A stretch of DNA of 64,000 nt from Deltaproteobacteria bacterium (lineage in GTDB: Bacteria > Myxococcota_A > Polyangia > JACPQR01): contig JACPQR010000020.1 in the NCBI GenBank assembly GCA_016190375.1, positions 3,665 through 67,664 of the forward strand, read 5' to 3'. The notes beneath the pieces are model-generated. The model had not been told where the DNA came from. It saw only the letters and a list, made by a program, of their open reading frames with translations, and did not search any database. Every line of letters starts with the position of its first letter. Within the stretch, counting starts at the first letter, position 1. Made by a program: the position numbers and the translations under genes. Below, piece after piece: positions 27,545 through 45,600 of this stretch.

Positions 27545-30160
27545 ATGCGCTTCGGTCCCTACGAGCTCGAAGAACGGCTGGCGGTCGGAGGGATGGCAGA
27601 GGTCTTCCTCGCCGTGCGGGCGGGCGCCGAGGGGTTCCGCCGCAGGATCGTGCTCAAGCGCATCCTGCCGCAGTTCGCCGAGGACGCCGACTTCCAGACG
27701 CTCTTCGCCGACGAGGCGCGGCTCGGCGGGCTGCTTCACCACCCGAACATCGTGCAGATGTTCGACTACGACCGCGTGGACGGCGTGGCCTACCTGGCGA
27801 TGGAGTATGTGGCCGGGCGCGACCTCGGCTACGTGCTCAAGCACGGACCGAGGATGCCGCTACAGGCCGCGCTCTTCGTCGTGCTCGAGGTGCTCGAGGG
27901 CCTCGGCTACGCGCACGACCTCACCGACGGCGGCCGGCCGCTCCACATCGTCCACCGCGACATCTCTCCCGCCAACATCCTCTTGTCGTACGCGGGTGAG
28001 GTTAAGATCGCCGACCTCGGAGTCGCCCGCGCCGACACCGCGGCGCACCAGACGACCGCCGGCGCGCTCAAGGGCAAGATCCCGTACCTGTCGCCCGAGC
28101 AGGTGGCGGCTCAGCCCGCGGACGCCCGCAGCGACCTGTTCTCGCTCTCGGTGGTCCTCTACCAGATGTTGACTGGCTCTCGTCCCTTCGACGCCACGAG
28201 CGAGATGGAGGTCCTGCAGAGGATCGCCTTCGGCGACTTCTTGGCTCCGACCAGGATCGCCCCCGACCTGCCGTCCGTCCTCGAGCCGGTGATCATGAAG
28301 GGCCTCGCCACCGATCGCGCCAAGCGCTTCCAGACCGCGGCCGAGCTCGGCGCGGCGCTTCGGGCGGCCGCCGCGAGCGTCGGGCTCGCGCCTTCCGCCG
28401 ACGCCCTGCGCGAGCACCTGTCGGCGCACTTCACGGGCCGCGCGACCGTGCGCACCGCGGCGCAGAGCTCACGCTCCGGGGTTTCGGACGATGCCCCGAC
28501 GATCGACGCGGCACACGCCTCGTTCGTGCCCGTCCCCGATGCCGCCACCGGCTACGACGGCCCGACCGTACCGGACCGCAAGATCCAGGGTTCGACGCCC
28601 CGTCCCGAGGTGCCTCGCGCGCCGGACCCGGGGACGCGGCAGACGTCGAGAGCGTCCAGGCGCTCGTCCTCCGTCGCGTTGATCGTGGCCGGAGCGCTGG
28701 CGGTCCTCGGGGCGGCGCTCGCCCTCTTGGCGGGCCTCCCCGATTGGCTCGCCGGCGGCGCAGGCGAGCCGGCGGCGCATCGTGCAGCGCCGCCGTGGGT
28801 CATCGTCTGGCGCATGACCGACCAGCAGGAGGGGTGGGCGCTCAGGCACCTCGTCAGGCCCTTCATCGATCTCCGGCATGAGCGAATCCGTCTCGTTCGC
28901 TTCCGCGACGTCGGCGACCTTCCGCGCGCGCTGCGCGACGCCGGGCCGACCGATCTCGTCAAGGTCCCCTTGCCGGTGGCTCGCGCGCTGGTCGACTCGG
29001 GGCTCGTGCGATCGATCACGCGGCTCGTGGACGACCTCGATCTCGAGGGCGGTCTGTCGGCCGTCACCTCCGGCTTCGAGCCACGGGCGATCCGTCTGTG
29101 CGAGTACCCGACGATCGTCGGTCGCGAGCTCTTCTTCCTCCCGCGCAAGGAGGAGGTGCGCGTCCTCGTCTACAGACGAGAGGCGGTCAGGGCAGCCGTC
29201 GCCGCTTTCCCCGCTCTCCGAGCGAGCCTCGAGGCGGACCTCGTCCGACTGCACGGACAGGGGCTACCCGATGGGTTCGTGCTCGAGGACGACCCCGAAG
29301 AGTGGGACTGGTACGACCTCTTGGCGGTCGCCTACGCGATGGCCCGGACGCCCGACGACCGAGGCAGGACGATGCCGCGCGTCGCGCGAAGGGTCCACCC
29401 CTACTGGGGCACCGTGGGCACCACGCTAGACATGCTGCGCGCCCTCGGACAGGCCGACCCGGCGATCGAGCCATCGCAACAGATGATCGACTTCGTGGCC
29501 TGGGAGGCCGCCTATCGCGAGCTCGGTCTGTACCACTCATCGATGTACCGCGACGAGGAGGTCCTGTCGGGTCGTGGCCTGTACGAGGCGATGCAGCGAG
29601 GTGACGTCCACCTGACGACCACCCACTCCCTCGGAGTCAGGCTCCTCGTGGGAAGCCCCGACGCGGCCCTCGTCGGCTATGTCCCGGACGGCGAGACCAG
29701 CCTCGGCCTGTCCACGCTGCCGCGTGGCGTGTCCTTCGCGCTCGACTCCTCCGGCAAGCCACTCCGGCTGGGCCGCAGAGGCGGACTGGTGGACGGCTGG
29801 CTCTGGGGGATCCCCGCCTCGGCCCCCGACCCCGTGCGCTCTCTCGCGCTCCTTCGACACCTGACCTCACGCGAGTCCGCTATTCGCGAGACGCGTGCGT
29901 TCTATCTGCAGCCGGTTCGCACCGACGTCGCGTTGGACGGCGACCCGCTCGCCTTGCGCCTCGCGGCGGTGATCGCGGCCCAGATGCAACAGGACGAGGG
30001 AGCGCTCGTCCCGCGTCCCGCGGACCCCGCCGAGCTCGATCGAATGCGCGACCGCGCCGTGGCGGTGTGGCGCGAGCTGATCGTGGCCGGCGCCCACGGC
30101 GATTCGGGCCGGATCGACGAGGGCACGATTGCGAACGAGCTCCGCGCGATCCTGCGCTAG
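27545..30160 (+). CDS. Transmembrane Ser/Thr protein kinase with extracytoplasmic solute-binding-protein-like domain
   Basis: AVGGMAEV, HRDISPAN, DLG, YLSPEQ; TM ALIVAGALAVLGAALALLAGL; SBP-like C-terminus. Confidence 0.88.
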   Translation: MRFGPYELEERLAVGGMAEVFLAVRAGAEGFRRRIVLKRILPQFAEDADFQTLFADEARLGGLLHHPNIVQMFDYDRVDGVAYLAMEYVAGRDLGYVLKHGPRMPLQAALFVVLEVLEGLGYAHDLTDGGRPLHIVHRDISPANILLSYAGEVKIADLGVARADTAAHQTTAGALKGKIPYLSPEQVAAQPADARSDLFSLSVVLYQMLTGSRPFDATSEMEVLQRIAFGDFLAPTRIAPDLPSVLEPVIMKGLATDRAKRFQTAAELGAALRAAAASVGLAPSADALREHLSAHFTGRATVRTAAQSSRSGVSDDAPTIDAAHASFVPVPDAATGYDGPTVPDRKIQGSTPRPEVPRAPDPGTRQTSRASRRSSSVALIVAGALAVLGAALALLAGLPDWLAGGAGEPAAHRAAPPWVIVWRMTDQQEGWALRHLVRPFIDLRHERIRLVRFRDVGDLPRALRDAGPTDLVKVPLPVARALVDSGLVRSITRLVDDLDLEGGLSAVTSGFEPRAIRLCEYPTIVGRELFFLPRKEEVRVLVYRREAVRAAVAAFPALRASLEADLVRLHGQGLPDGFVLEDDPEEWDWYDLLAVAYAMARTPDDRGRTMPRVARRVHPYWGTVGTTLDMLRALGQADPAIEPSQQMIDFVAWEAAYRELGLYHSSMYRDEEVLSGRGLYEAMQRGDVHLTTTHSLGVRLLVGSPDAALVGYVPDGETSLGLSTLPRGVSFALDSSGKPLRLGRRGGLVDGWLWGIPASAPDPVRSLALLRHLTSRESAIRETRAFYLQPVRTDVALDGDPLALRLAAVIAAQMQQDEGALVPRPADPAELDRMRDRAVAVWRELIVAGAHGDSGRIDEGTIANELRAILR

Positions 30161-30618
30161 GGCCGTTCTTGGACCCCGAGCGTCGGCGAACCGGCCGGAT
30201 CGACGAGGCGCTCGAAGCCTGCATCCGCGAAGTGCCTGACATTGCGCGTGTAGAGCGTGCGCACGCCAGCCGCGCGAAGGGTGTGGGCGAGCTGAGCGTC
30301 GAACGAGCGGCCAGCCGCGAACCCTCTCCTGCCCAGGTCCGCGCGAAGGGGCGGCCAGAGGTCGTGTGCGTATCCGACCCGCTGACAGCCGCAGCGGTCG
30401 AAGAAGTCCACGACCTCGGCGGCCTTCCCGGCAGTCAATGGCCGTTCGAGGACCGACGGGTTGCGCAGCAGGCGGTACAGCTCGATCAGCACCTGATCTG
30501 CGACGACCCAATCGACGCCGCCATTCGCCAGATCGTCGAGCACCGGGCGGCAGGCCTCGTGCTCGACGCAGTCCTCGTTCAGCGCGTAGAGGAGGACGTT
30601 CGTGTCGGCGCTCTTCAC
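30157..30618 (-). CDS. vapC: PIN-domain toxin (VapC)
   Basis: ADTNVLLYA, IELYRLL, RSFDAQLA, LYTRNVRHF. Confidence 0.9.
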   Translation of the reverse strand: MKSADTNVLLYALNEDCVEHEACRPVLDDLANGGVDWVVADQVLIELYRLLRNPSVLERPLTAGKAAEVVDFFDRCGCQRVGYAHDLWPPLRADLGRRGFAAGRSFDAQLAHTLRAAGVRTLYTRNVRHFADAGFERLVDPAGSPTLGVQERP

Positions 30619-30863
30619 CTGGCCTCCCGGTCCGAGTACGCGGCTTCGCGGAGCCGAGCGGCTGGCAGCTTCACCCGGCCGCCCCGGAACGACGGCGGCT
30701 GGCGAACGGGCCCGCCCCGACCGGCGTCGAGGTATCGCTTGCGCTCGAGCCAGGCTTCCGTCGCTCGCCTCACGACCTCCGAGACCGCCTGGTCTTCCTC
30801 CCTCGCGACCCGCCGCAGACGGTGCATCAAGGGCTCCGGGAAGAGAATTTGGATTTTTTGCAT
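30615..30863 (-). CDS. vapB: Ribbon-helix-helix antitoxin (VapB-like)
   Basis: KIQILFPEPLMHRLRRVAREEDQAVSEVVRRA; 4-bp overlap with the PIN gene. Confidence 0.85.
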   Translation of the reverse strand: MQKIQILFPEPLMHRLRRVAREEDQAVSEVVRRATEAWLERKRYLDAGRGGPVRQPPSFRGGRVKLPAARLREAAYSDREAR

Positions 30864-30881
30864 GTATCCATGTTATAGACT

Positions 30882-30915
30882 GCTGCTTGCCCCCGCAAGC
30901 AGCCTTTGCGCAAAG
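30882..30915. promoter_or_regulatory. Candidate operator palindromes upstream of the vapBC operon
   Basis: 9-bp IR GCTGCTTGC-cccc-GCAAGCAGC (30882-30903) and perfect 12-bp palindrome CTTTGCGCAAAG (30904-30915); TATAAC on minus strand 8 nt before the ATG. Confidence 0.5.
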
Positions 30916-30942
30916 CTCGTCCGGGACGTACCTTGGCGTCCC

Positions 30943-31188
30943 ATGACCGACGAGCTCCCGACGCCCGAGCCCAAGGAAATCGACGAGAAGCTCTCGATCC
31001 AGCTCCGGCACCTGGCGGAGGACGCCGTGCTCCGCGGCCGGCCCAACGGTGACGAACGTTGCGACGGCTGCCTCTACTACCTGAGCCCGGATCAGGCACT
31101 CGCCTACTGCTGGCACCCCAAGCTCCGGATCCTCGTGGGCGCCTCCTGGTGGTGCCAGTGGTGGGAGAAGATCCCCGAGGACGGCTGA
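30943..31188 (+). CDS. HiPIP-like small Fe-S protein without export signal
   Basis: C-x2-C-x12-C-x14-C with WWCQWW end. Confidence 0.7.
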   Translation: MTDELPTPEPKEIDEKLSIQLRHLAEDAVLRGRPNGDERCDGCLYYLSPDQALAYCWHPKLRILVGASWWCQWWEKIPEDG

Positions 31189-31202: not shown

Positions 31203-31505
31203 ATGCTCGCCAGACACTGGACCGTTTACATCCTGCGCTGCGGTGACGGATCGCTGTACACAGGCATCACCGATCGACTGCAGAAGCGGCTCGAGGCGCA
31301 CCGTGCCGGAAGGCGGGGCGCTCGGTACACGAGGTCCCGGCTGCCGATCGAGCTGGTGTGGAGCTCCGGCCGCAAGAGCGGCACCGAGGCACGGAAGCTC
31401 GAGCACGCGATCAAGCGGTTGACCCGCCGGGAAAAGCTGCGGCTCGTCGCCGGAAGCCGGCGGCTCTGGAGTCGGTTGCGGCGCGCGGTGCTCGGCGCTG
31501 TCTAA
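31203..31505 (+). CDS. GIY-YIG nuclease family protein (UPF0213/YhbQ-like)
   Basis: VYILRCGDGSLYTGIT...RLEAH...GARYTRSRLP...EHAIKRL. Confidence 0.92.
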   Translation: MLARHWTVYILRCGDGSLYTGITDRLQKRLEAHRAGRRGARYTRSRLPIELVWSSGRKSGTEARKLEHAIKRLTRREKLRLVAGSRRLWSRLRRAVLGAV

Positions 31506-31537
31506 TCCTGTCGTTTCGCTGGTATCCTGAGGATCGG

Positions 31538-33232
31538 ATGCCGGCCGGTCCGCCACCGCTGCCCGCGCAGTTTCCCATGCCCTATGGGCGGTACGTGCTC
31601 ACCGGAGCGCTCGGCCGGGGCGGGATGGCGGAGATCTTCCTCGCCCAGCAGCAGGGGCCTCACGGCTTCCAGAGGGAGGTCGTCGTCAAGAGGATCCTGC
31701 CCCACATCTCGGACGACGACGAGTTCGTGCGGATGTTCATCCAGGAGGCCAAGCTCACGGCGCGCCTGGTGCACCCGAACATCGTACAGGTGCTCGATTT
31801 CGGAGAGGAGGCGGGGCAGCTCTTCCTCGCGATGGAGTTCGTGGACGGGACGGACGTGAGGGCCTTGCTCCGCGCGCTTCGCAAGTCACGCGAGCTGCTC
31901 GACGTGGAGATCGCCTGCCACGTCGTCATGGAGCTCGCGCGTGGGCTGGACCACGCACATCGTCTGGCCGACCCGGTATCGGGGGACCCGCTCGGCCTGG
32001 TTCACCGGGACATCTCGCCATCGAACGTGCTCCTGTCGTGCGAGGGCGCCGTCAAGCTCTGCGACTTCGGCATCGCCCACGTGGGGTCCGAAGCGATGAC
32101 GAGGGTGGGCACGCTCAAGGGCAAGTACGGCTACATGTCGCCCGAGCAGGCCACGGGCAGGCCAATCGACGCGCGCAGCGACGTCTTCTCGCTCGGCGCG
32201 CTGTTCTGGGAGCTCCTCGCGGCGCGCCGCCTCTACGGTGCCGACAGCGAGCTCGGGGTCCTGGAGCTCGCGCGCAACTGCGAGCCGCGGCCGCTGCCGC
32301 GCACCGACCTGCCGATGTTCCCCGCGCTGGCCGCGACACTCGAGCGTGCGCTCGCGCGCGATCCCGACCAGCGATACGACCGCGCCTCCGAGCTCGCGAA
32401 GGACCTCGCCGAGTACCTCCGCGCCGTCGACCTGTACGTCTCGACCAGCGAGCTCGCAGCGACGCTCCAGAAGTACTGCCCGACGGAGCTCGGGCGAAGC
32501 CGCGAGGTCCGCAAGCGGGCGCTCACCCAGGGCACGGGCACCGGCACCGGATCCGAGCCATCGTTCGGCGTCGCTTGGCAGTCGGTCGCCGAGGATCCAC
32601 CCCCATTCATCCCGATCACGGTGGACGAGGACATCCAGCCCGTGGTCGAGGCGCCGCGAGCAAGCCAGCCCCCGCCGCAGCCGACCGCGGTCCAGCCGGC
32701 GCCTCGCGCCTCGCGGGTCGACGATCTGGCGCGGATCCTCCTGCAATCGGGCGTGGTGACCCAGGCGCAGCTCCAGGCGGCACGCGAGGCCGCGGCCAGG
32801 TCCGGCCGAACGGTCGTGTTCGCGCTCCTCGCCATGCGGGTCGTGAGCGACTCGGATCTCGCGCACGCATTCGGCGTCCTTCTCGACCTGCCGGTCGTGG
32901 ACCTGGCCAAGGAGGTCGTCCTCGATGCGGTCGCCAGACGCATCCCGGGGCCGCTGGCGGTCCGCCTCTCGGCCATCCCCTTCCGCGTCGCCGACTCCGG
33001 GATGGGCCGGCCGACGCTGCACGTCGCCTTCGCGAACCCGGCATCGCTCGGATCCGTTCCGGAGATCGAGTTCGCCACGGGCATGAAGATCCGCCCGTAC
33101 ATCGCACGCCAGGCCGCCGTGCTCGCTCGCATCCGGCGCGCGTTCTACGGTGAGGATCTGCCGGTACCTCCTCTGTCCCCGTCTCCCGAGCTGCGCGGCG
33201 GCGGCGGTGACCCGGACGGGGGAGAGTGGTGA
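31538..33232 (+). CDS. Ser/Thr protein kinase with C-terminal MshEN/GSPII_N-like domain
   Basis: GRGGMAEI, HRDISPSN, DFG, YMSPEQ; C-terminal LARILLQSGVVTQAQL...AFANPA...IEFATGMKIRPYIA. Confidence 0.88.
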   Translation: MPAGPPPLPAQFPMPYGRYVLTGALGRGGMAEIFLAQQQGPHGFQREVVVKRILPHISDDDEFVRMFIQEAKLTARLVHPNIVQVLDFGEEAGQLFLAMEFVDGTDVRALLRALRKSRELLDVEIACHVVMELARGLDHAHRLADPVSGDPLGLVHRDISPSNVLLSCEGAVKLCDFGIAHVGSEAMTRVGTLKGKYGYMSPEQATGRPIDARSDVFSLGALFWELLAARRLYGADSELGVLELARNCEPRPLPRTDLPMFPALAATLERALARDPDQRYDRASELAKDLAEYLRAVDLYVSTSELAATLQKYCPTELGRSREVRKRALTQGTGTGTGSEPSFGVAWQSVAEDPPPFIPITVDEDIQPVVEAPRASQPPPQPTAVQPAPRASRVDDLARILLQSGVVTQAQLQAAREAAARSGRTVVFALLAMRVVSDSDLAHAFGVLLDLPVVDLAKEVVLDAVARRIPGPLAVRLSAIPFRVADSGMGRPTLHVAFANPASLGSVPEIEFATGMKIRPYIARQAAVLARIRRAFYGEDLPVPPLSPSPELRGGGGDPDGGEW

Positions 33233-34799: not shown

Positions 34800-35273
34800 A
34801 TGGGCAACCAGCAAGGGTGGCCTCCTCTCGGCTCGCCCATGCAAGGTCGACGCTCGTTTCTGGGACGCTTCGTGATGTGGGTGAGCCTCATCGTGAGCCA
34901 CCTGACCGCGGGCGCCTTCGTCCTGCGCTTCCTCACTCCGCCTAGACGGCGGCCGGCGCACCGAGCGGTGTACGTCGCGAGGCTGGAGGACCTGCCGGAA
35001 TCGGAGAGCGTCGTCGTGGAGGATCTGCGCGGCGTCCCCGTCGCGGTCGTCCGTGAGGGGACGACGATCAGGGCGCTGTCGACGGTCTGCACGCACCTCG
35101 GCTGCCGGGTTCGCTGGGAGGGCAACAAGCAGCGTTTCTTCTGTCCATGCCACGACGGGATCTTCGATCGCGAGGGCCGCGTCGTCGCCGGACCCCCGCC
35201 GCGCCCGCTCGACCGGTACGAGGTCCGGATCGACAAGGACCTCGTCTTCCTCACGATGGAGGAGCCGGCGTGA
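34800..35273 (+). CDS. Rieske [2Fe-2S] subunit
   Basis: RRSFL N-terminus + TM; CTHLGC and CPCHDGIF motifs. Confidence 0.93.
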   Translation: MGNQQGWPPLGSPMQGRRSFLGRFVMWVSLIVSHLTAGAFVLRFLTPPRRRPAHRAVYVARLEDLPESESVVVEDLRGVPVAVVREGTTIRALSTVCTHLGCRVRWEGNKQRFFCPCHDGIFDREGRVVAGPPPRPLDRYEVRIDKDLVFLTMEEPA

Positions 35274-35289
35274 TCGAGGAGCCTCGAGC

Positions 35290-36324
35290 ATGAGCGCGAT
35301 CGGCGCGTGGCTGAAGACGAGGTTCCCGATCGACGTCGATCGGCTTCGCGCCGTCACCGACGAGCCCATCCCCGGCCACCTGAAGAGATGGTGGTTCGCG
35401 CTGGGCGGAACGCCGGCCTATCTGTTCGCCGTCCAGATCGTGACGGGGATCCTCCTTCTCTTCTACTACGTCCCCGAGCCCGGTCGCGCCTACGACTCCG
35501 TCGCCGAGATCACGTCGGGCGTCCGCTTCGGCTGGTGGCTGCGCAGCATCCACAAGTGGGCCGCCACGGGGATGATCGTAGCGGTCTGTCTGCACACGAT
35601 CCGCGTCTTCTTCACGGGCGCGTACCGAAAGCCACGGGAGCTCACGTGGGTGGTCGGGTGCATGCTCCTGTTCGCGACGCTCACGGCGGGACTGACGGGC
35701 TATTCGCTCGTCTACGAGCAGCTCTCGTACTGGGGGACGACCGTGACGTCGAACCTCGTGGCGGCAGTGCCGGTCCTGGGCGGGACGCTCGCTCGGTTCC
35801 TGCGTGGCGGCGCCGAGGTCGGGCCCGCGACGCTCACTCGCTTCTTCGTCCTGCACGTCGCCATCGTGCCCGGCGCGATCGCCACCCTGGCCATGCTCCA
35901 CCTCGCGCTCGTCCGCGCGCACGGCGTCACGGAGCTCGAGCCACGGCGTGGCGAGCCTCGCACGTTCCCGCTCATCCCCGACCACGTCCTCACCGAGCTG
36001 TCGATCGCGCTCGTCCTGATGATCGCGCTCAACGTCCTGGCGATCCTTCTGCCGGCGGAGCTCGGGGAACGCGCCAGCCCCACCGCGACGCCGGAGCACA
36101 TCCGGCCGGAGTGGTACTTCTACTTCGCGTTCCGCTGGCTGAAGCTGACGTCGCTCCGCATGGGCGTCCTGGGTGTCGGGGTCGCGGCCGCGATCATGGT
36201 CGTCTGGCCCGCGATCGACGTAGTGCTGCGCCGCCTGTCGCCGCGGCGTGAGCTGTCCGTCCTCTTCGGAGCCGCCGCGGTCCTGGCCGTGGTGGCCCTG
36301 ACCCTGTGGGAGGCGCTCGCATGA
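35290..36324 (+). CDS. Cytochrome b (b6 and subunit-IV parts fused)
   Basis: RSIHKW, LHTIRVF, SYWG, RFFVLHV, PEHIRPEWYF. Confidence 0.95.
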   Translation: MSAIGAWLKTRFPIDVDRLRAVTDEPIPGHLKRWWFALGGTPAYLFAVQIVTGILLLFYYVPEPGRAYDSVAEITSGVRFGWWLRSIHKWAATGMIVAVCLHTIRVFFTGAYRKPRELTWVVGCMLLFATLTAGLTGYSLVYEQLSYWGTTVTSNLVAAVPVLGGTLARFLRGGAEVGPATLTRFFVLHVAIVPGAIATLAMLHLALVRAHGVTELEPRRGEPRTFPLIPDHVLTELSIALVLMIALNVLAILLPAELGERASPTATPEHIRPEWYFYFAFRWLKLTSLRMGVLGVGVAAAIMVVWPAIDVVLRRLSPRRELSVLFGAAAVLAVVALTLWEALA

Positions 36325-37640
36325 TGACCGTCGGCCCGAAGCGCTGGATCGTGGCGAGCCTCGGCTTGCTCTTCCTCCTGTCGCTCATCGTCGTCTCTTA
36401 CCGGGAGATCGCGACCGAGCGCCGGCCGACCGAGAGGCCCCGCCCCGTGGTCGCCGCCGCCGACAGGGTCTGCGTCGACTGCCATGGGCGAGTGACGCCA
36501 TCGATCGTCCACCAGTGGGAGGACTCGCGGCACGCGACCCGCGGCATCGGCTGCGCCGCATGCCACGGCGCGAAGCAGAGGGACCCCGACGCGTTCGTGC
36601 ACTACGGCGTGCGCATCGCGGCGATCGTCAGTCCACTGGACTGCTCCCGATGCCATCAGCGCGAGTTCCGCGAGCAGACCGGCAGCCGCCACGCCGACGC
36701 TCTGGCGTTGATGCGCGAGAACGACGGCGACGTCGCGCGGTTCGTGGGCGCCGAGCCGCTCGGCTGCCAGGGATGTCACGGCGCCAGGGTCATCGCAACC
36801 GGTGCCGGCCAGCTCGACCCGACCACCTGGCCGAACGGAGGCATCGGCCGCATCAACCCGGATGGCTCGAAGGGCTCGTGCTCCGCCTGCCATACGCGGC
36901 ACGACTTCTCGCTCGCGCTGGCGCGGGCGCCGGAAGCCTGCGCGAAGTGCCACCAGGGAGACGACCACGCCCCGGCGATGGACGTGTACCAGGAGTCCAA
37001 GCACGGGGCCCGCTTCCGCGAGATGCATGACGAGATGAACCTCGGAAGCTCGACGTGGATCGTGGGCCGGGACTACTACGCGGCCCCGACCTGCGCGACC
37101 TGCCACATGTCGGCGACGCCCTCTCAGCCAGTCACCCACGACGTGGGCACGCGCCTGGGCTGGACCCTTCGGCCTGTCGTCTCGGTCCGGCAGGCCGGCT
37201 GGGAGGACAAGCGGGACGCGATGGTCGACGTGTGCTTGCAGTGCCACGCAGACCAGTGGGTGCAGAACTACTTCACTCAGTTCGACGCGTTCGTCGAGGA
37301 CTACAACGGCCGGTTCGCGATGCCGGCGCGCCAGATCATGGAGGCGCTCCGGCGCAAGGGCGCGCTCACCCCCGCCCCGTTCGACGAGCCGATCGAGTAC
37401 ACGTACTTCGCGCTGTGGAGCCAGGCAGGCCGGCGGGGGCGCATGGGCGCCGCGATGATGGGGCCGTACTTCGTCCAGTGGCGAGGCGCGTACGAGGTGG
37501 CCAGGGTCTTCTACTCGGAGCTTCTCCCGGAGGCGGAGAGGCTGCGCCCCGGCATCACGGCGCCGTTCGTCACCACCGGAGCGCGCGTGACTCGCGCAAG
37601 GCGACCGGCGCCAGCCGCCACGCTCGGAGAGCGCCGGTAG
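36321..37640 (+). CDS. Octaheme cytochrome c, hydroxylamine-oxidoreductase-like family, N-terminally anchored
   Basis: Eight CxxCH motifs (CVDCH, CAACH, CSRCH, CQGCH, CSACH, CAKCH, CATCH, CLQCH); helical C-terminus GRRGRMGAAMMGP..QWRG. Confidence 0.88.
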   Translation: MMTVGPKRWIVASLGLLFLLSLIVVSYREIATERRPTERPRPVVAAADRVCVDCHGRVTPSIVHQWEDSRHATRGIGCAACHGAKQRDPDAFVHYGVRIAAIVSPLDCSRCHQREFREQTGSRHADALALMRENDGDVARFVGAEPLGCQGCHGARVIATGAGQLDPTTWPNGGIGRINPDGSKGSCSACHTRHDFSLALARAPEACAKCHQGDDHAPAMDVYQESKHGARFREMHDEMNLGSSTWIVGRDYYAAPTCATCHMSATPSQPVTHDVGTRLGWTLRPVVSVRQAGWEDKRDAMVDVCLQCHADQWVQNYFTQFDAFVEDYNGRFAMPARQIMEALRRKGALTPAPFDEPIEYTYFALWSQAGRRGRMGAAMMGPYFVQWRGAYEVARVFYSELLPEAERLRPGITAPFVTTGARVTRARRPAPAATLGERR

Positions 37641-38488: not shown

Positions 38489-40126
38489 ATGACCGCCAGA
38501 CGGCCTGCCGACTTCTCGCTAGCCCACGCCGTTCGGTCCGACTCGTTCACGCCGCGGCGGAGCGACCTCGAGCCGCTACTGAACCTGCTCGCCCAGGACG
38601 AGTCCCTGGAGGGGCCGATCGAGCGGGCGATCTCGAGGGTGGGACCGGAATCGGTGCCGGCCGTTCGCGCCAGGCTCCGGGAGGCGACGCCGCCCTTCAA
38701 GGGCCGGCTCGCGAGGCTGCTCGGCCGGCTCGCCGTCACGGACCCGAGCCTGCGGGCGGACCTGGCAGGCCTCCTCGTGGACTCCGACCCGAAGACGCGC
38801 CGGAACGCGATCATCGCGCTCGGCAAGGTCCCCTCGTCGCTCGGCGGGGCCGGTCCGCCGGTCGATGTCGAGGCAGCCCTGATCGCGGCCTGGGGCAGAG
38901 AGACCCGCGAGGACCTGCGTCGATCGATCGCCGATGCGCTGGGCAAGATCGGCGGAGCTACGGCGCTCGAGCTCTTGAAGAGGTTCGAGCCTCGAACACC
39001 CGAGACGCCGGGGCTCGCCGAGGTGGTCGGACGGGCAACGACGAAGCTCCACCGCTCGCTCCTCCGTGCGAGCCGGTCGCGGATCGACCCCGAAAGGGCG
39101 CCGCCATCGCCAGTGCCGATCGTCTTTCACTGCCGCTCGGGCCTCGCGCCGATTCTCGCCGACGAGCTCCCGCCCGGCTTCCGTGCCCGCGTGGATGGCC
39201 CCGACCGCGTGCTCGCCGTGCTGACCGGCCCGCTGTCCGAGGTGTTTCGCGCCCGCACGATGTTGCGGTTCGGGTTTCCCCTCCCGGCGGAGCGCGGCGA
39301 GACAGGAAACGCGCTGGTTCGGGCGCTCACGTCGGAGGCCGCGGGCCGCGTCTTCGAGACCTGGACCGATGGCGCCATCCGCTACGGAATCCGCTGGGTC
39401 GGCGGAGGCCACCAGCGCGCGCTCGCCTGGAGCACGGCCCAGCGTGTGGCCGAGAAGCGGCCGACCTTCGTCAACGATCCCACGCGGAGCACGTGGGATG
39501 CCGTCGTCGAGGAGGCCAACGGCGAGGTTCGAGTCGAGCTGGTCCCCAAGGCCCTCGACGACCCCCGCTTCGACTACAGGCTAGGCCAGGTCGCCGCAGC
39601 CTCGCACCCGACGATCGCCGCGGCGCTCGCGCGAATCGCAGGCGCCAGACCCGACGACGTCGTCTGGGATCCCTTCGTCGGATCCGGCCTCGAGCTCGTC
39701 GAGCGCGCACGGCTCGGCAGATCGCGCGCGCTCCACGGCACCGACCGAGATCCGAAGGCCATCGGCGTCGCCCGGCGCAACCTGGCCGCCGCCGGCATCC
39801 ACGGCGCGAGGCTGGCGGTGGCGGACGCGGGCGAGCACGAGGTCCCCGGCGTCACCCTGATCATCACGAACCCTCCGATGGGCCGCCGCATCGATCGCGG
39901 CGACGTCGGTCCCCTGCTCGATCGCTTCATCGATCACGCGGGCCGTAGCCTGGTCGATGGAGGCAGGCTCGTCTGGGTGTCGCCCTTGCCGCGACGCACC
40001 ATCGCCCGCGCCCGCCGAGTCGGCCTCGTCCTTGCCTCCACTCGCGACATCGACATGGGCGGCTTCACTGCCCAGATCCAGGTCTTCTGCAAGGCGAAGC
40101 AGCCCGCGACCAAGCCGCGGTCGTAG
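38489..40126 (+). CDS. HEAT-repeat protein fused to class I SAM-dependent (RNA-type) methyltransferase
   Basis: N-terminal HEAT repeats; VWDPFVGSG, GTDRD, ITNPPMG. Confidence 0.82.
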   Translation: MTARRPADFSLAHAVRSDSFTPRRSDLEPLLNLLAQDESLEGPIERAISRVGPESVPAVRARLREATPPFKGRLARLLGRLAVTDPSLRADLAGLLVDSDPKTRRNAIIALGKVPSSLGGAGPPVDVEAALIAAWGRETREDLRRSIADALGKIGGATALELLKRFEPRTPETPGLAEVVGRATTKLHRSLLRASRSRIDPERAPPSPVPIVFHCRSGLAPILADELPPGFRARVDGPDRVLAVLTGPLSEVFRARTMLRFGFPLPAERGETGNALVRALTSEAAGRVFETWTDGAIRYGIRWVGGGHQRALAWSTAQRVAEKRPTFVNDPTRSTWDAVVEEANGEVRVELVPKALDDPRFDYRLGQVAAASHPTIAAALARIAGARPDDVVWDPFVGSGLELVERARLGRSRALHGTDRDPKAIGVARRNLAAAGIHGARLAVADAGEHEVPGVTLIITNPPMGRRIDRGDVGPLLDRFIDHAGRSLVDGGRLVWVSPLPRRTIARARRVGLVLASTRDIDMGGFTAQIQVFCKAKQPATKPRS

Positions 40127-40160: not shown

Positions 40161-40883
40161 TTAACCTCGTCCCCCGCTGTCCGCGTCGTACTCCTTACGG
40201 GAGGCGGGGTCGCCGACCTTCCGTAAGGCCCACGAGACCCGCTTGAAGATCTGGTAGAGACGCTCGCGGGTCTCCTCGTCCGGGATCGCATGTCGGAGAT
40301 CGGGGTGGCACTCCAGGGCCCGCTGGCGGAACGCGGCCTGGATCTCGCGGTCGGTGGCCGTGGGCTGGACGCGCAGGATCTGGTAGGCGTCGAGCGATTC
40401 GAGCTTCGCGTGGAGCCGTTCCGCCCAGCGAGCTAGCTGTTCGAGGTCCACCTCGACCGGCTCTTCGGGGTCGCGGAAGGCCGGAATGCCCGTCGCGCTC
40501 GACTGCCGCACGGGCCGGCCGCCGGCCGCCGCCGTCACCGCCTCGACGAGTGCCGAGCGATCGGGCGGAACGCAGACGAAGGAGCTCGCGCCGAACGCCC
40601 TCGCGTCGACGAGGCCGCGGCGCTCGTCGGAGTAGCCGCGATCCGCCAGGACGAAGCCCACGGGACCGCTGCAGGCGCCGCGGAGCCGGTCGAGCGCGTC
40701 CGGGCTGGCCCGGACCACCTCCGCCTGCAGGATCACGACGTCTGGGCCGTCCTGGCCGACGAGCGCGAGCGCTCCCGCCAAGGAGTCCGCGAACTGAACC
40801 TCATGCTCGGCAGGGTCGAGCAGCGACAGGAACAGCGCGCGAGTCACGCTGTTCGGTGAAACGAGGAGGACTCGCCGACTCAT
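40161..40883 (-). CDS. Pseudo-receiver + J-domain protein
   Basis: RVLLVSP / PDVVILQ receiver-like N-terminus; YQILRV...CHPD...YD J-domain. Confidence 0.85.
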   Translation of the reverse strand: MSRRVLLVSPNSVTRALFLSLLDPAEHEVQFADSLAGALALVGQDGPDVVILQAEVVRASPDALDRLRGACSGPVGFVLADRGYSDERRGLVDARAFGASSFVCVPPDRSALVEAVTAAAGGRPVRQSSATGIPAFRDPEEPVEVDLEQLARWAERLHAKLESLDAYQILRVQPTATDREIQAAFRQRALECHPDLRHAIPDEETRERLYQIFKRVSWALRKVGDPASRKEYDADSGGRG

Positions 40884-42565
40884 GCCCCGGAGCCCATCCG
40901 CTGCCTCGACTCGGCGATCTGGGCCTCGCTCGGGCCCGAGAGCTTCAGCCGTCGGGAGTGCTGCCGGCCCGAGTCGAGGTCCGTCGCGGTGACGCAGAGG
41001 ATACCGTTGACGTCTACCTCGAACGTGACCTCTACCGACACGTCCCCGGCCCCCGCGGGTCTCAGACCCGAGACGACGAAGTCGCCGAGCCTCGTGTTCT
41101 CGGCTGCCTGGGGAGAGTCCCCCTGGATGAGGACGAAGCGCATCTCCGGTTGCCCCTCGCGCCATGTCGTGAACCGACGCTTCTCCTCGGTCGGGACGAC
41201 GGAGTAGCTCTTGAGCACCCACTCGACGCCGCCGCCCGCGACCGCGATCCCGATCGAGTGAGGAAGGACGTCGATGAGAAGCGCGCTGGCGACCGCCGCG
41301 GGTGCCGCTGCGCTCGCGGCCCCAGACGAGGCCTCGGCGGGCTCGCCGCCGCCCGGTCCCGGCGCCGACGCGTTCCCGGCGGCAGGAGTCGAGCGCCTCT
41401 GGGGCTTGACCGTCCCGCCCGTCAGCAGCGCGGCATGCATCGACGCGCCCAGAGCGACCGCGTGCATCGGATCGACTTCCCGCCGGGGCTTCTTTCCGAA
41501 GAACTCGGCGACAGCGTCGGCCACCAGGGGCACCTGGGTCGTCCCGCCCACCAGGACCACGTCGTTGACGTCGGAGGGCGCGACCCTCGCGGCCTGCAAT
41601 CCCCTCCTCGTGAGGTCGATCGAGCGCTCCACGAACGTGTACGCGATCGAGGCCAGGTCCGTGCGGGACAGATCCATCCGCAGGTCCTGCGCGCCCGAGT
41701 CCCCGAAGCCGGCGCCCTCGATCACGACCTCGGTCTTCTCCTGGGATGCCAGCTCGATCTTGGCCTTCTCCGCGGCGAACAGGAGCCTCTGCCACTCGGT
41801 CTGCGAGCGCCTCAGGTCGATCCGCGCATCCCTGCGGAAACGGTCGGCGAGGCGCCCGGCGAGCGCCACGTCGATATCGTCGCCTCCCAGGAACGGATCG
41901 CCCGCCGTCGACAGCACCCGGTACACGCCCTTGCGGATCTCCACGACCGAGATGTCGAACGTCCCGCCGCCGAAGTCGTAGACCGCGATCACACCATCGC
42001 GCGAGCCGTCGAACCCGAACGCCAGCGCTGCGGCGGTCGGCTCGTTGACGATCCTGAGGACCTCGAGCCCCGCGATACGCCCCGCGACCCTCGTGTACTC
42101 GCGCTGGCCGTCGTTGAAGTTCGCCGGGACGGTGATCACCGCATGGACCGGCTGATCCCCGAGCTTCGCTCGCGCGACCGCCGCCATCTTCCGCAGGATC
42201 ATGGCGGCGATCTCCGCCACGGAGTACGTGCCGCCGCGAGTGTGGATGGCCACCTGTCCGTCGGGGCCCGAGACGACCTCGTACGGGAGCGCCGCGCGGG
42301 CGATGCGGACTGCCGGGTCGGAGTAAGGACGACCGATGAGCCTCTTCGAAGAGTAGATGGTGTTCGTCGGATCTTCGACCAGCCTGGATCTGGCGCGATG
42401 GCCGACGAGGATCTCGTTAGCATCCGTGAACGAGACGACGCTCGGCGTCGTGGTCCGGCCTTGAGGATCGGCGAGGACGGACGGTTCACCTCCGACGACG
42501 GCGGCCACGGACGAGTTCGTGGTCCCGAGATCTATCCCCACCACCAGAGCGGATGAGCGAGACAC
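40880..42565 (-). CDS. Atypical Hsp70 (DnaK-family) protein lacking most of the C-terminal lid
   Basis: GIDLGTTNS, TVPANF, RIVNEPTAAA, YDFGGGTFDIS, LVGGTT, TFEVDVNGIL; start approximate. Confidence 0.9.
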   Translation of the reverse strand: MSRSSALVVGIDLGTTNSSVAAVVGGEPSVLADPQGRTTTPSVVSFTDANEILVGHRARSRLVEDPTNTIYSSKRLIGRPYSDPAVRIARAALPYEVVSGPDGQVAIHTRGGTYSVAEIAAMILRKMAAVARAKLGDQPVHAVITVPANFNDGQREYTRVAGRIAGLEVLRIVNEPTAAALAFGFDGSRDGVIAVYDFGGGTFDISVVEIRKGVYRVLSTAGDPFLGGDDIDVALAGRLADRFRRDARIDLRRSQTEWQRLLFAAEKAKIELASQEKTEVVIEGAGFGDSGAQDLRMDLSRTDLASIAYTFVERSIDLTRRGLQAARVAPSDVNDVVLVGGTTQVPLVADAVAEFFGKKPRREVDPMHAVALGASMHAALLTGGTVKPQRRSTPAAGNASAPGPGGGEPAEASSGAASAAAPAAVASALLIDVLPHSIGIAVAGGGVEWVLKSYSVVPTEEKRRFTTWREGQPEMRFVLIQGDSPQAAENTRLGDFVVSGLRPAGAGDVSVEVTFEVDVNGILCVTATDLDSGRQHSRRLKLSGPSEAQIAESRQRMGSGA

Positions 42566-42608
42566 GGCGGAAGAGCGCCAGCATACCACGACGGGGTTGG
42601 CTGAACGC

Positions 42609-45600
42609 TCAGGATCCGAGCAGCGCGCGCAAGCGCGACCGAAGGGCCCCGCTCGCTCCGGCGGCGCGCCCCTCGACCGCGCTCCGGCCGTCCTTTCCCC
42701 CGATCGCGAGCAGGACCCGCGCGATCGTCTCGACGACCAGCGGGCTCGCCTGACCCTTGCCGGATCCGACGAAGCGCGACACGACGCCACCCCTCCTCGG
42801 CTCCATTGCCTTGACCAGGACCTCCACGGCGCCAGGCTTCGCGTCCTGAACGACGTCGAACAGCGCCGCCGCGGCCGTCGCGCAGAGGTCATCGCCCGCC
42901 GGGGTGACGCCGGAGAGGATCTTCTCGATCCGCAGGACGACCTCGGCGTCCACGCCGCCGACCCGGCGCAGCCCCGCCACCGCGGCGACCCTCACGCCGT
43001 CGTCGGGATCGTCGAGGAGCGTCGCCAACCTCTGGCGCGCGCGTGGACCCCACAGTGCGGCCAGGGCGAGCGTCGCGACCCTGCGCACGGACGGCGCGCG
43101 ATGTGAGAGGAAGCGGGCGACCAGTCGGCCCAGGTCCTCGTCGATGACCTCCGGCATGGCGCGGAGCAGGTCCTCGGCCAGCGTCGGCTCGGCGTCGGGG
43201 CGCACCGGATCGATGCCGGACAGCACGGTGGCGATCACGGGAACCGCCTCCGGGCCCAGCTCGCGCAGCGTCGCGACGAAGCGTGGCCTGCCGATATCGG
43301 CAGCCTTGCCTCGCTCCCTCGCCGCGCAGAGCGCGCGGGCTCCCTCGGCGCCCGCGCTCACGAGGATCCCGCGCGCCGGGTCGCGAACGGCCATGCCTCC
43401 GGTGAGGAGCGCATCGGCGACGGGAGCGAGAAGGGCCGGGTCCTGCAGCGTCCGCAGCGTTCTCGCCGCGAGCCCCTCGCGGGTCGAGTCCGACGGCTCC
43501 GCGCCCCGCGCGTGCCGCTCGAGCCGCGCGACCACGGCCCAGAGCGCCGCCGCCTCGCCACGCCTGGCCAGGACGCGCATCGCGCGATCCAGCGTGGCGA
43601 CCTCGCGTGCGTAGCGGGCCTCGTCGAAGATGGTGTCGAGGGACCGCAGTATGGCCTCGGGGTTCTTCGCCAGGGCCTCCGCCTGCTGCTCGGCGAGGAT
43701 CCAGAGCTGCAGATCGGGCGGCAGCTCCGGGAAGGACAGGATCGCCCTCTCGTGCAGGACACGGAGGACCTCATCGGAGTCGACCGTCCGCTCGCGTACG
43801 AAGCGGGCGCCGAACAGGTGGACCAGCTTGCGCGCGACCGTGGTCCCACCCCCACCCTCCTCCGAGCCGTGCGACGCCACCTCCTTCTCGAGGTCGCCGA
43901 GGAGCAGCCCCGCGACGCGCGTGCACAGGGCGTGCGGCAAGGCCGCGACGATCAGCGTCGACAGGTCGAGGGACGCGAGCTCCGGCACGTGGCGAACGGC
44001 CACTCCTACGAGGTCCGCGTTGGCGAGCAGGAGCCTGACGGGCTCGGGCCCGCGCAGGGTCCTGACGACGTCGCCGATGAGCTGCGTCCTCAGCTTCCTC
44101 ATCCCCTCGAGGTCGACGCCGCGCAGCATCGGCAGCGCTCTGAGATCCCGGGCCAGCCGGGAGATGCAGAGATCCACCTCCCAGGGAAGCCTCCGCTCCC
44201 GACCGAGCAGGTCCGCCGCGAAGAGCACCGAGACGTGGCGGAGCCCCCGCGACAGGAAGGTCGCGCGGAGCTGGTCGGTCGCGACCTCGGGGCCGGAGAG
44301 CAGCTCGACCACGTCTGCGAGCTCGCCCTGGCCGATCCCCTCCTTGAGCGTCAGCGCGATCATGTGGCGGCGCACGAAGACGTCCGCCATCCGCGCTCCG
44401 TGTGCCTCGAAGACCGACACCGGTACGAGCTTGCGCAGCTCGTAGGTCTCGCCGAGCCCCGTCTGCACGGTGAGCTGGACGACGTGCTGAACGTCGCGCC
44501 GGGCGATGGAGGTCTCGCCCCGATCTCTCAGCACCGGCCCGACGGATCGCACGACTGCCGTCAGCGACTTGTCGAACTCGGGGTGTCCCCGCTCGTAGTA
44601 GCTCGTCCGGGAGACCGCGGCCGTCAGGGCGACGAAGAGCTCGGCAAAGCCCGAGCTGGGGTCGTCGAGCGCGACCGAGAGCCCCGGGTCCGATGCGGTC
44701 TGTTCCGGCTGGGGTGGAGGCGCGGACGATGGCCGTCGCTGCTCGGGAGCGTCGACATCGATCAGGTCGTCGAGGACGACGAGCGCGGGACGATCGTCTT
44801 CGACGATCCGCGCCGAGTCGACCTTCGTCACCGACGTTCGCTCGGCGTCGAGGGGTGGAGGGCTGACCTCGGTCTTGGCGTCCTGGAAGCCGCCACCAGG
44901 AACGTCCCGTCGCACCGTCTTCTCGTCGAGCATCTGCTCGAGCAGCGCCCTGAGCTCCGCGCGCAGCTCGCGCGCCGACTGCTGCCGCTTCGACGGGTCC
45001 TTCTGCATCGCCTTCAGGACCACCGTCTCCAGGCTCGGATCCACCGTGGGGTTCACCCGCGTTGGCGGGATGGGCACCTCGCTCACGTGCTTCATCGCCA
45101 CGCCCAGGGCGCTGTCGTCCGTGAAGGGCACCCGTCCGGTCGTCATCTCGTAGAGGATGACGCCGCACGAGTAGATGTCCGATCGGGCATCGATCGGCTG
45201 CGCCCGCGCCTGCTCGGGAGACATGTAGTGAGGCGTTCCCCAGATGGTCCCGACGGCCGTGAGCTTCTTGAGCTTCTCCTGATCTTGCCCGTCGGCTCGG
45301 TCCTGGAGCTTGGCGATCCCGAAGTCGCACACCTTGACGACATCGACCACGGAGCCGTCGTCGTCCCGTCCCTGGACGATCACGACGTTCTCGGGCTTGA
45401 CGTCGCGGTGGACGATCCCGAGATCGTGCGCCGCCGACAGCGCCGCGCACACCTGCGACATGACCTCGACGCAGCGGGCCAGCGGCATGGGGCCGCCCGT
45501 GTCGAGGATGATCTGCAGGTCCTGGCCCGCGAGGTATTCCATCGCGATGTAGAGGAGCCCGTCGGGCTCCTGTCCGAAGTCCAGGACCCTCATGACGTTC

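Follow-up and report, generated by a model that had tools for sequence, protein, structure and literature searches.

The question raised by the locus described here is what an octaheme cytochrome c does in the place that a cytochrome c1 or f holds in complexes of the bc1/b6f superfamily. The window, i.e., the whole stretch of 64,000 nt that was analyzed (Deltaproteobacteria bacterium assembly GCA_016190375.1, contig JACPQR010000020.1, positions 3,665 to 67,664 of the forward strand; G+C content about 70%), carries at positions 34800-37640 three genes, all on the plus strand, in the order Rieske protein, cytochrome b, and octaheme cytochrome c (OCC). Based on the results of this study, the complex encoded by this operon is probably a proton-motive quinol:nitrite (or hydroxylamine or nitric oxide, NO) reductase that works downstream of the nitrate reductase Nar. 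The module is of a known and common kind, recognized in genome analyses, and the present copy is an ordinary member of it with a variant catalytic subunit. The remodeling of that subunit is unexplained and is the sole part of the finding that could be new.

The octaheme subunit and its operon

The OCC gene (36321..37640, +) encodes 439 aa from its ATG. In its product, which belongs to the IhOCC/HAO clade, the CxxCH motif occurs exactly eight times (at residues 51, 78, 108, 149, 187, 207, 258, and 305). The score against the HAO family profile PF13447 was 96.4 bits, compared with a gathering cut-off of 21.9 bits. The best solved relative was IhOCC (PDB 4QO5), with E = 5.6e-42 by sequence and 5.3e-68 with the family profile. 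Nitrosomonas europaea HAO (NeHAO) came second by sequence (E about 1e-22; 6.5e-33 with the family profile), followed by HAOr (6H5L; profile 1.5e-31), HOX, and HDH. Foldseek searches with the AlphaFold2 (AF2) model of the OCC ranked IhOCC (4qo5) first as well, and then HAOr (6h5l), NeHAO, HDH, and HOX; HAOr, which reduces nitrite and is without the cross-linking Tyr, also shares a GPDHP motif with the consensus of the OCC family. Membership in the ONR (TvNiR) or NrfA groups was rejected, all eight motifs being CxxCH and none CxxCK. TvNiR was a marginal match by profile (E = 0.0036), and the Foldseek values for TvNiR (0.36-2.7) and TaNiR (4.7) were not significant. The HAO-like octaheme of the original prediction was thus borne out, the profile and structure matches to the HAO family outranking those to ONR/NrfA-type multihemes.

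The alignment of the OCC family with NeHAO (hhalign probability 99.9, residues 45-352) brought the heme motifs of the two proteins into register; the NeHAO-type alignment used here was built from metagenome loci, and its best member was 100% identical to the PDB fragment. The heme 4 motif CQGCH (residues 149-153; 36765..36779, +) fell on the P460 heme of HAO and is presumed to hold the catalytic heme. The comparison of the distal heme 4 ligands with those of HAO, which had been proposed as a check, gave a direct correspondence: D215 and H216, located in the distal-pocket loop GDDHAPA (36957..36977, +), fell on D267 and H268 of HAO. R284 (37170..37172, +) aligned with the HAO active-site Tyr334 (precursor Tyr358). 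In the family alignment of 200 sequences, in which this OCC is P0004, D215 was conserved in 193 members, and H216 and R284 in 199 each. Features of the HAO superfamily are thus present, i.e., eight CxxCH motifs in HAO order, a profile score over the threshold, and heme 4 with a distal Asp-His pair.

The two upstream genes carry the hallmarks of the bc1/b6f superfamily, namely Rieske cluster boxes, two bis-His heme sites, and a PEWY motif. The Rieske [2Fe-2S] subunit (157 aa; 34800..35273, +; PF00355, E = 1.7e-15) has an N-terminal anchor of the twin-arginine translocation (Tat) type, with the twin-arginine motif RRSFL at 34848..34862 (+) as read from the translation. Its cluster boxes, CTHLGC (35088-35105) and CPCH (35142-35153), were located by motif within 35088..35153 (+). 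The CPCHDGIF box is without the Ser/Tyr typical of high-potential Rieske proteins, and the top NCBIfam similarity, which was under the cut-off, was to the b6f protein PetC. The cytochrome b (344 aa; 35290..36324, +) is of the fused b6 plus subunit IV type (PF00033, 1.4e-53; PF13631, 1.2e-44; PF00032, 6.5e-10). It has the heme b ligand pairs H88/H102 (H-x13-H) and H189/H204 (H-x14-H, a b6-like 14-residue spacing), the PEWY motif of the quinol-oxidation (Qo) site at 36106..36117 (+), and no Cys for heme ci (WFALGG). Its ATG at 35290 lies 16 nt past the Rieske stop codon and is preceded by GAGGAG; an alternative start at GTG 35053 was rejected, as the first 79 codons would overlap the Rieske gene and had no Pfam match.

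The trait of the superfamily that is missing is the c1- or f-type monoheme subunit, the third gene being the octaheme. According to the gene annotation of the window and Pfam searches, neither a cytochrome c1/f gene nor a class-I cytochrome c occurs in the operon or adjoining it. The TGA of the cytochrome b gene overlaps the octaheme ATG at 36321 (ATGA), and the flanking genes are rpiA upstream (+) and a convergent ferritin-like gene downstream, which delimit a three-gene unit. A promoter and terminator scan gave nothing informative. The N-terminal anchor of the OCC, KRWIVASLGLLFLLSLIVVSYRE (36330..36419, +), is a predicted uncleaved transmembrane segment (AF2 helix 4-33, with a predicted local distance difference test score, pLDDT, of 76-95 for the block). 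Therefore, the layout that had been read from the sequence, a three-gene Rieske/cytochrome b/multiheme operon with a gene overlap, an N-terminal anchor, eight CxxCH motifs, and no c1, is present in every part.

The arrangement is not due to chance, because the same gene order recurs in about 19 of the 69 GTDB loci with sufficient upstream sequence, i.e., about a quarter, and on independent metagenome contigs. Rieske and cytochrome b genes were directly upstream of the OCC gene in 17 of these loci under strict adjacency, and slightly further upstream in two others (L084 and L075). The linkage was strongly clustered on the OCC tree: parsimony required 5 changes, whereas shuffled labels gave 20.5 and never fewer than 16. 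All linked homologues (22/22) shared a conserved helix at the N-terminus that is not cleaved, with the pattern KR.IVA.L..LFL..L.VV.[WY].E; the 20 unlinked OCCs inspected had signal peptides and were either solitary or beside a NapC/NrfH-like tetraheme. By analogy with the anchors of c1 and f, this helix presumably docks the octaheme into the complex. A Tat protein of 773-930 aa is encoded directly downstream in 10 of the 17 linked loci, and all four of those tested scored over the NapA equivalog cut-off. Amt genes were seen upstream in two other linked loci, L084 (Nitrospira) and L015.

A large protein collection holds over 5500 members of the OCC family, with lengths of about 430-450 aa, and the family occurs in at least 588 GTDB species genomes of many phyla, including Nitrospira, Calditrichaceae, and Myxococcota. 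In the class of the host, a homologue was found in 43 of 301 genomes (nearest 60% identity), and the GTDB family of the host holds this genome alone. Other arrangements were also observed. Many Acidobacteriota OCC loci (e.g., L009 and L014) have signal peptides and no Rieske/cytochrome b genes, and at L073:5965-7986 an OCC without these genes is followed by a 211-aa tetraheme NapC/NrfH-like protein. In an uncultured Nitrospira sp. (L065), Rieske (2126-2347) and cytochrome b (2439-3392) genes lie downstream of the OCC gene (524-1708), so that either the order of the genes differs there or the pair belongs to an unrelated complex III.

Proposed coupling of quinol oxidation to nitrite reduction

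The assembly (7.8 Mb, 88% complete) was recovered from groundwater metagenomes, and the host probably belongs to Myxococcota. The sequencing runs found were all DNA metagenomes of groundwater, with no RNA data set among them. The genome contains a single OCC of this family. Its NarG scored 1483 bits against a cut-off of 1084 and has NarI and a major facilitator superfamily (MFS) transporter as neighbors. In the host genome, no PF02335 match for NrfA, no NirB over the cut-off, and no NirK were found, and the search for NirS gave nothing beyond NirS-like repeats that were weak and partial. The single NIR_SIR protein was closest to AsrC/Dsr-type sulfite reductases and scored under the cut-off. 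Since NarGHI is present and NrfA, NirB, NirK, and a convincing NirS were not found, the complex is the only recognizable nitrite reductase candidate of this genome. Moreover, the genome has four further cytochrome b loci, two of them with class-I cytochrome c partners, and therefore the Rieske/cytochrome b-OCC complex would be an extra, dedicated one.

In the proposed scheme, (mena)quinol would be oxidized at the normal Qo site of the Rieske/cytochrome b pair, and the electrons of the high-potential chain would pass from the Rieske cluster to the periplasmic octaheme, bypassing any cytochrome c1 or f. The octaheme, with its N-terminal helix as the tether to the complex, would supply through its heme chain an open catalytic heme 4 in a pocket with the Asp-His pair and the Arg. 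Heme 4 would reduce nitrite, and probably hydroxylamine or NO too, with ammonium as the most likely product. The nitrite would be delivered by the cytoplasmic NarGHI via the adjacent MFS transporter. Because the donor would be a Q-cycle enzyme, nitrite reduction would be coupled to the proton-motive force. Observed directly are which genes are present and in what order, their families and motifs, the association of the anchor with the complex, the occurrence of NapA or Amt at other loci, and the lack of other nitrite reductase genes in this genome; what the complex reduces and to what, which way its electrons flow, and that its subunits assemble, we infer. The reductive role tied to quinol oxidation that was originally suggested for the octaheme is still the best reading.

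If this is true, the cassette is a means of reducing nitrite with quinol that is coupled to the proton-motive force; it occurs in hundreds of species from many phyla, and surveys based on nrfA, nirK, or nirS would miss it. The window extends the list of carriers to a Myxococcota-like organism from groundwater, whose Nar nitrate reductase has no other recognizable partner.

On the other hand, several points weigh against a quinol:nitrite reductase. No nitrogen-cycle gene lies beside the operon in the window, the wider surroundings being rpiA, the ferritin-like gene, and kinases. The genome is incomplete, and therefore other nitrite reductases may lie in the missing part. The AF2 model of the OCC, which was used for helix boundaries and Foldseek, is poor (pLDDT 65) and without hemes. 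The OCC has a Tyr at two of the three candidate columns for a heme cross-link (Y362 and Y383), so that such a bond might still form. It also departs from the family at 12 of the 117 near-invariant positions, among them the loop beside the catalytic Asp-His pair and two near-invariant His, and its chemistry may therefore differ from that of the rest of the family.

Some further observations were made on other contigs of the host genome, outside the window. The narGHI cluster, including the MFS transporter, is at contig C240:26174-36917. Two c-type cytochromes of 303 and 549 aa, each with two CxxCH motifs and facing the membrane or the periplasm, are encoded directly upstream of narG, an arrangement reminiscent of Thermus-type narC clusters. 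On contig C128 (7105-10711, -), a cytochrome b6-like gene is followed by a gene for a 663-aa protein that likewise has eight CxxCH motifs; its domains are those of class-I cytochromes c (PF00034 x4, PF13442 x3) and not of the HAO type. A 655-aa protein with Fe-S-type Cys clusters is encoded upstream. A 567-aa fusion of cytochrome b with a C-terminal diheme class-I cytochrome c, at contig C89:13755-15458 (-), represents a third type of Rieske/cytochrome b complex in this genome, and two more cytochrome b fragments are at the ends of contigs C73 and C247.

Remodeling of the octaheme and possible alternative functions

A single relative of this OCC, P0005 (83% identical), has the same alterations. 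It is encoded on a Logan contig from another sequencing run with the same cytochrome b-OCC-ferritin synteny, and the two share residues that are private to them among the 200 sequences. Their distal loop, GDDHAPA versus the family consensus GPDH-PQ, has P214D, an inserted A217, and Q219A, all found only in these two. The changes H367S and H368Q affect positions at which 198 and 197 of the 200 members, respectively, have His, and D383Y a position at which 198 have Asp. H388R and the loss of the conserved C-terminal tail were also seen. Counted over 117 near-invariant columns, P0004 deviates at 12 and P0005 at 16, compared with a family median of 1, and they are the top two of the 200 sequences. 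The partner subunits are unchanged, with 0/21 deviations in the Rieske protein and 0/62 in cytochrome b at the columns conserved among OCC-linked homologues. The ratio of nonsynonymous to synonymous substitution rates (dN/dS) between P0004 and P0005 was 0.18 in the core and 0.66 in the C-terminal tail, and the core value indicates that the derived state is maintained by purifying selection.

These results raise the alternative that the architecture is the same and the octaheme does a changed job, i.e., that it has another substrate or product (hydroxylamine, NO, sulfite, or peroxide; NO and not ammonium) or another heme ligation. We regard this as unlikely. It would account for the two most deviant octahemes of the family being joined to partners that deviate nowhere, for the clustering of the changes in the GDDHAPA loop, at HH367/368 (to SQ), at D383Y and H388R, and in the lost tail, and for a derived state that selection maintains. 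Apart from the catalytic His216, just six His outside the heme motifs are invariant in the family, which makes H367 and H368 candidates for the seventh distal heme ligand; HAO has two invariant His in the helix equivalent to theirs. If they include that ligand, which is missing here, one heme in this OCC may be ligated differently. However, IhOCC has Phe-Tyr at columns 367/368 and is nitrite reducing all the same, as the literature has it. Moreover, D215/H216, R284, and all eight heme motifs are retained, and the changes, which were placed by sequence alone, are carried by two sequences only.

A more specific form of this idea is offered tentatively and with low expectation. The OCC could have been retooled in this groundwater lineage, with the rewritten distal loop, the lost His, and D383Y forming a re-engineered HAO-family active site, and this site might carry an independently acquired Tyr-heme contact with altered substrate or product. 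D383Y lies in the helix-loop-helix whose HAO counterpart extends into the active site of the adjacent subunit and provides the cross-linking Tyr. The architecture of HAO suggests by analogy that the changed residues may line one inter-subunit pocket, in which case the locus would present a naturally re-engineered active site of the HAO family. The copy is in any event a natural variant in which the membrane partners are untouched and the catalytic subunit is changed at a dozen near-invariant sites, and it points to residues worth mutating in an expressed family member.

It is improbable that the octaheme is an electron-transfer subunit only, a long substitute for c1 that hands electrons on to an oxidase, a NapA-type enzyme, extracellular metals, or a similar acceptor that is soluble or lies further out. 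The presence of NapA directly downstream in many loci speaks for it, as the OCC could link NapA to the quinol pool, and the possibility was considered by the Caldithrix authors (PMC5317091). However, the Asp-His pair and Arg284 at heme 4, conserved in 193-199 of the 200 members, would be unexpected in a mere wire. The closest characterized relatives are enzymes, and an acceptor gene beside the operon was not found in the window.

Still less can be said for an oxidative HAO-like enzyme with a Tyr-heme cross-link via Y383 or Y362 that would oxidize hydroxylamine or a similar compound, and this is very improbable. The evidence concerns the C-terminal helix-loop-helix, Y362...W387R388 (37404..37484, +), as read from the AF2 helices 357-378 and 383-408 and from the column counts in the 200 sequences. 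In NeHAO, the cross-linking Tyr491 (mature Tyr467) stands in the invariant motif W-T-Y491-T-E-G-W495 between the last two long helices, and the helix-loop-helix of the OCC is, in the models, the topological counterpart of the loop that bears it. The AF2 inter-helix loop has 4 residues in the OCC compared with about 14 in HAO, where the NeHAO model (pLDDT 36) was used for helix boundaries only. The reliable local hhalign alignment between OCC and HAO stops at residue 352, ahead of the cross-link segment. Beyond it, the forced global hhalign alignment put Tyr491 opposite the C-terminal tail of the family, which this OCC lacks. Anchoring the family W387 on HAO W495 put it on column 383, or on 384 with a small gap. 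An hhalign run on the C-terminal part gave a nonsignificant 7-residue match, WTYYELW (360-366)/WTYTEGW, with a probability of 0.55%, which corresponds to column 362. These placements are mutually exclusive, and no residue equivalence was assigned. Residues 360-366 of this OCC (37398-37418) read YTYFALW, the family pattern being W-T-Y-[YF]-E-L-W, and lie inside a confidently predicted helix.

Among the 200 family members, column 362 is Tyr in 150 and Phe in 48, column 383 is Asp in 198, and column 384 is Tyr in 146 and Phe in 53; this OCC carries Y362, Y383, and F384. Tyr is thus not invariant at any candidate column, and this speaks against a cross-link being obligatory in the OCC family, in keeping with the cross-link-free IhOCC; in this OCC, with its Y362 and Y383, one might still form. 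The Trp at 387 does not vary across the family, and in HAO an equally invariant Trp stands four residues past the Tyr. For this reason W387 is more likely a shared neighbor of the cross-link Tyr than its replacement, and the exchange of Tyr for Trp suggested in the original prediction is unproven. An oxidative enzyme could draw on the W387-W495 anchoring, which puts Tyr491 on a column that is Tyr only in P0004 and P0005, and on the weak local match at 360-366. However, both alignments are without statistical support, and the loop lengths differ as given above. Furthermore, a Rieske/cytochrome b pair normally oxidizes quinol and donates to the c-type subunit, the genome context is one of nitrate reduction (amo genes were not searched for), and the nearest relatives are reductive. 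Least credible of all is a decaying or nonfunctional copy, since the loss of many near-invariant residues and the degenerate tail are outweighed by an intact frame with all heme motifs, fully conserved partner genes, and the low core dN/dS between copies that come from two independent samples and agree in synteny, by which the pseudogene idea was rejected.

Surroundings of the operon and comparison with known systems

The other genes near the operon were also annotated. Just upstream are two large Ser/Thr protein kinases (27545-30160, +, and 31358-33232, +), the second with an MshEN domain at its C-terminus, and between them is an open reading frame with a weak PIN-domain match (30157-31116, -). 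Downstream, HEAT repeats and a methyltransferase domain of the RMKL/UPF0020 type occur together in a 545-aa protein (38489-40126, +), and in an Hsp70-family protein (40880-42892, -) the Hsp70 domain follows an extra stretch of about 115 residues at the N-terminus.

The module itself has been described in genomes of the genus Nitrospira. In PMC6311188 and PMC6606698 (and in Koch 2015, as cited in these two and in PMC12342949), an 'ONR' of N. moscoviensis and N. japonica with two upstream Rieske/cytochrome b genes is proposed to perform quinone-pool-coupled assimilatory nitrite reduction, and the ONR and Rieske/cytochrome b genes were co-expressed with nitrite as the only nitrogen source (PMC6606698). 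In Nitrospirales, petBC adjoins most ONR genes and NapC takes its place in a quarter (PMC12342949). The same petBC/NapC split was seen among the OCC loci here, the unlinked NapC-type copies matching the NapC alternative of lineage IV Nitrospirales. The present module and that of Nitrospira thus have in common the Rieske-cytochrome b-OCC order, the proposed route from quinol to nitrite, and the NapC/NrfH-like partner of unlinked copies. The OCC family is also the same, L084 and L065 being 46-47% identical to this OCC and L084 having Rieske/cytochrome b upstream; these are uncultured loci and not the N. moscoviensis protein itself. The name 'ONR' is misleading, as by its sequence the protein is of the HAO/IhOCC type and not of the CxxCK TvNiR type. 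The difference is that the Nitrospira genes are in a nitrogen-assimilation cluster (with Amt upstream in L084) and are read as assimilatory, whereas the present operon, as a check of its flanks in the window showed, is not sited in such a cluster, has rpiA and the ferritin-like gene as neighbors, and shares its genome with a respiratory NarGHI. The derived pocket residues of this copy are a further difference.

A second described case is Caldithrix abyssi, an ammonifier without NrfA, in which Rieske/cytochrome b genes and an 'epsilon-Hao' are part of a nap cluster (Cabys_2556-2564; PMC5317091). There, too, Rieske/cytochrome b stands beside a Tyr-less HAO-like octaheme that was proposed to be an ammonifying nitrite reductase (PMC5317091). 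A Calditrichaceae metagenome-assembled genome (L044) has the order Rieske-cytochrome b-OCC-NapA-tetraheme, with an OCC 47% identical to the present one, and by way of this family-level relative we infer that the Caldithrix protein is orthologous to this OCC. Unlike in Caldithrix, no nap cluster lies beside the present operon, and nitrate would be reduced by the Nar encoded elsewhere in the genome.

With Nitrosomonas europaea HAO (1FGJ/4FAS) and the Kuenenia HOX/HDH proteins, the OCC shares the heme order, the Asp-His pair at heme 4, and three C-terminal helices. However, NeHAO is an oxidative, soluble enzyme with about 130 more residues and has the invariant Tyr491, which in the oxidative HAO/HOX/HDH subgroup is the cross-link to heme 4 of the adjacent subunit (P460 chromophore, covalent trimer), whereas in the OCC family the position of HAO Tyr334 is an Arg and the matching C-terminal segment is without an invariant Tyr.

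The best match in both sequence and fold, IhOCC (Igni_0955 of Ignicoccus hospitalis, 4QO5), is placed by PMC9250108 in one clade with HAO/HDH, as an octaheme nitrite reductase without a P460 heme. It is membrane-associated and has no P460 cross-link, and its C-terminal helix-loop-helix aligns with that of the OCC family. It differs in being archaeal and about 80 residues longer, and in having Val at the position of the catalytic His (DPDVP versus the family GPDHP). No link to Rieske/cytochrome b is described for it in PMC4429474 and PMC9250108.

The original prediction pointed to anammox planctomycetes as the analogue. In the anammox complex kuste4569-4574, the octaheme Kuste4574 resembles HAOr, is without the cross-link, and presumably acts on nitrite as a reductase (PMC12485887); both systems therefore combine Rieske/cytochrome b with an HAO-family octaheme lacking the cross-link, and the soluble anammox HAOr (Kustc0458, 6H5L) was the second-best structural match of this OCC. 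However, the anammox operon is made up of six genes, among them those for a hexaheme protein and for an NAD(P)-oxidoreductase module, compared with three genes here, and its proposed product is NO. It is thus not the closest analogue, as the OCC is nearer to IhOCC, the extra anammox subunits are absent, and the module had already been described in Nitrospira and Caldithrix. The OCC is much closer to IhOCC (5e-68) than to HAOr (1.5e-31), and therefore the coupling of an HAO-family octaheme to Rieske/cytochrome b may have arisen separately in the two systems.

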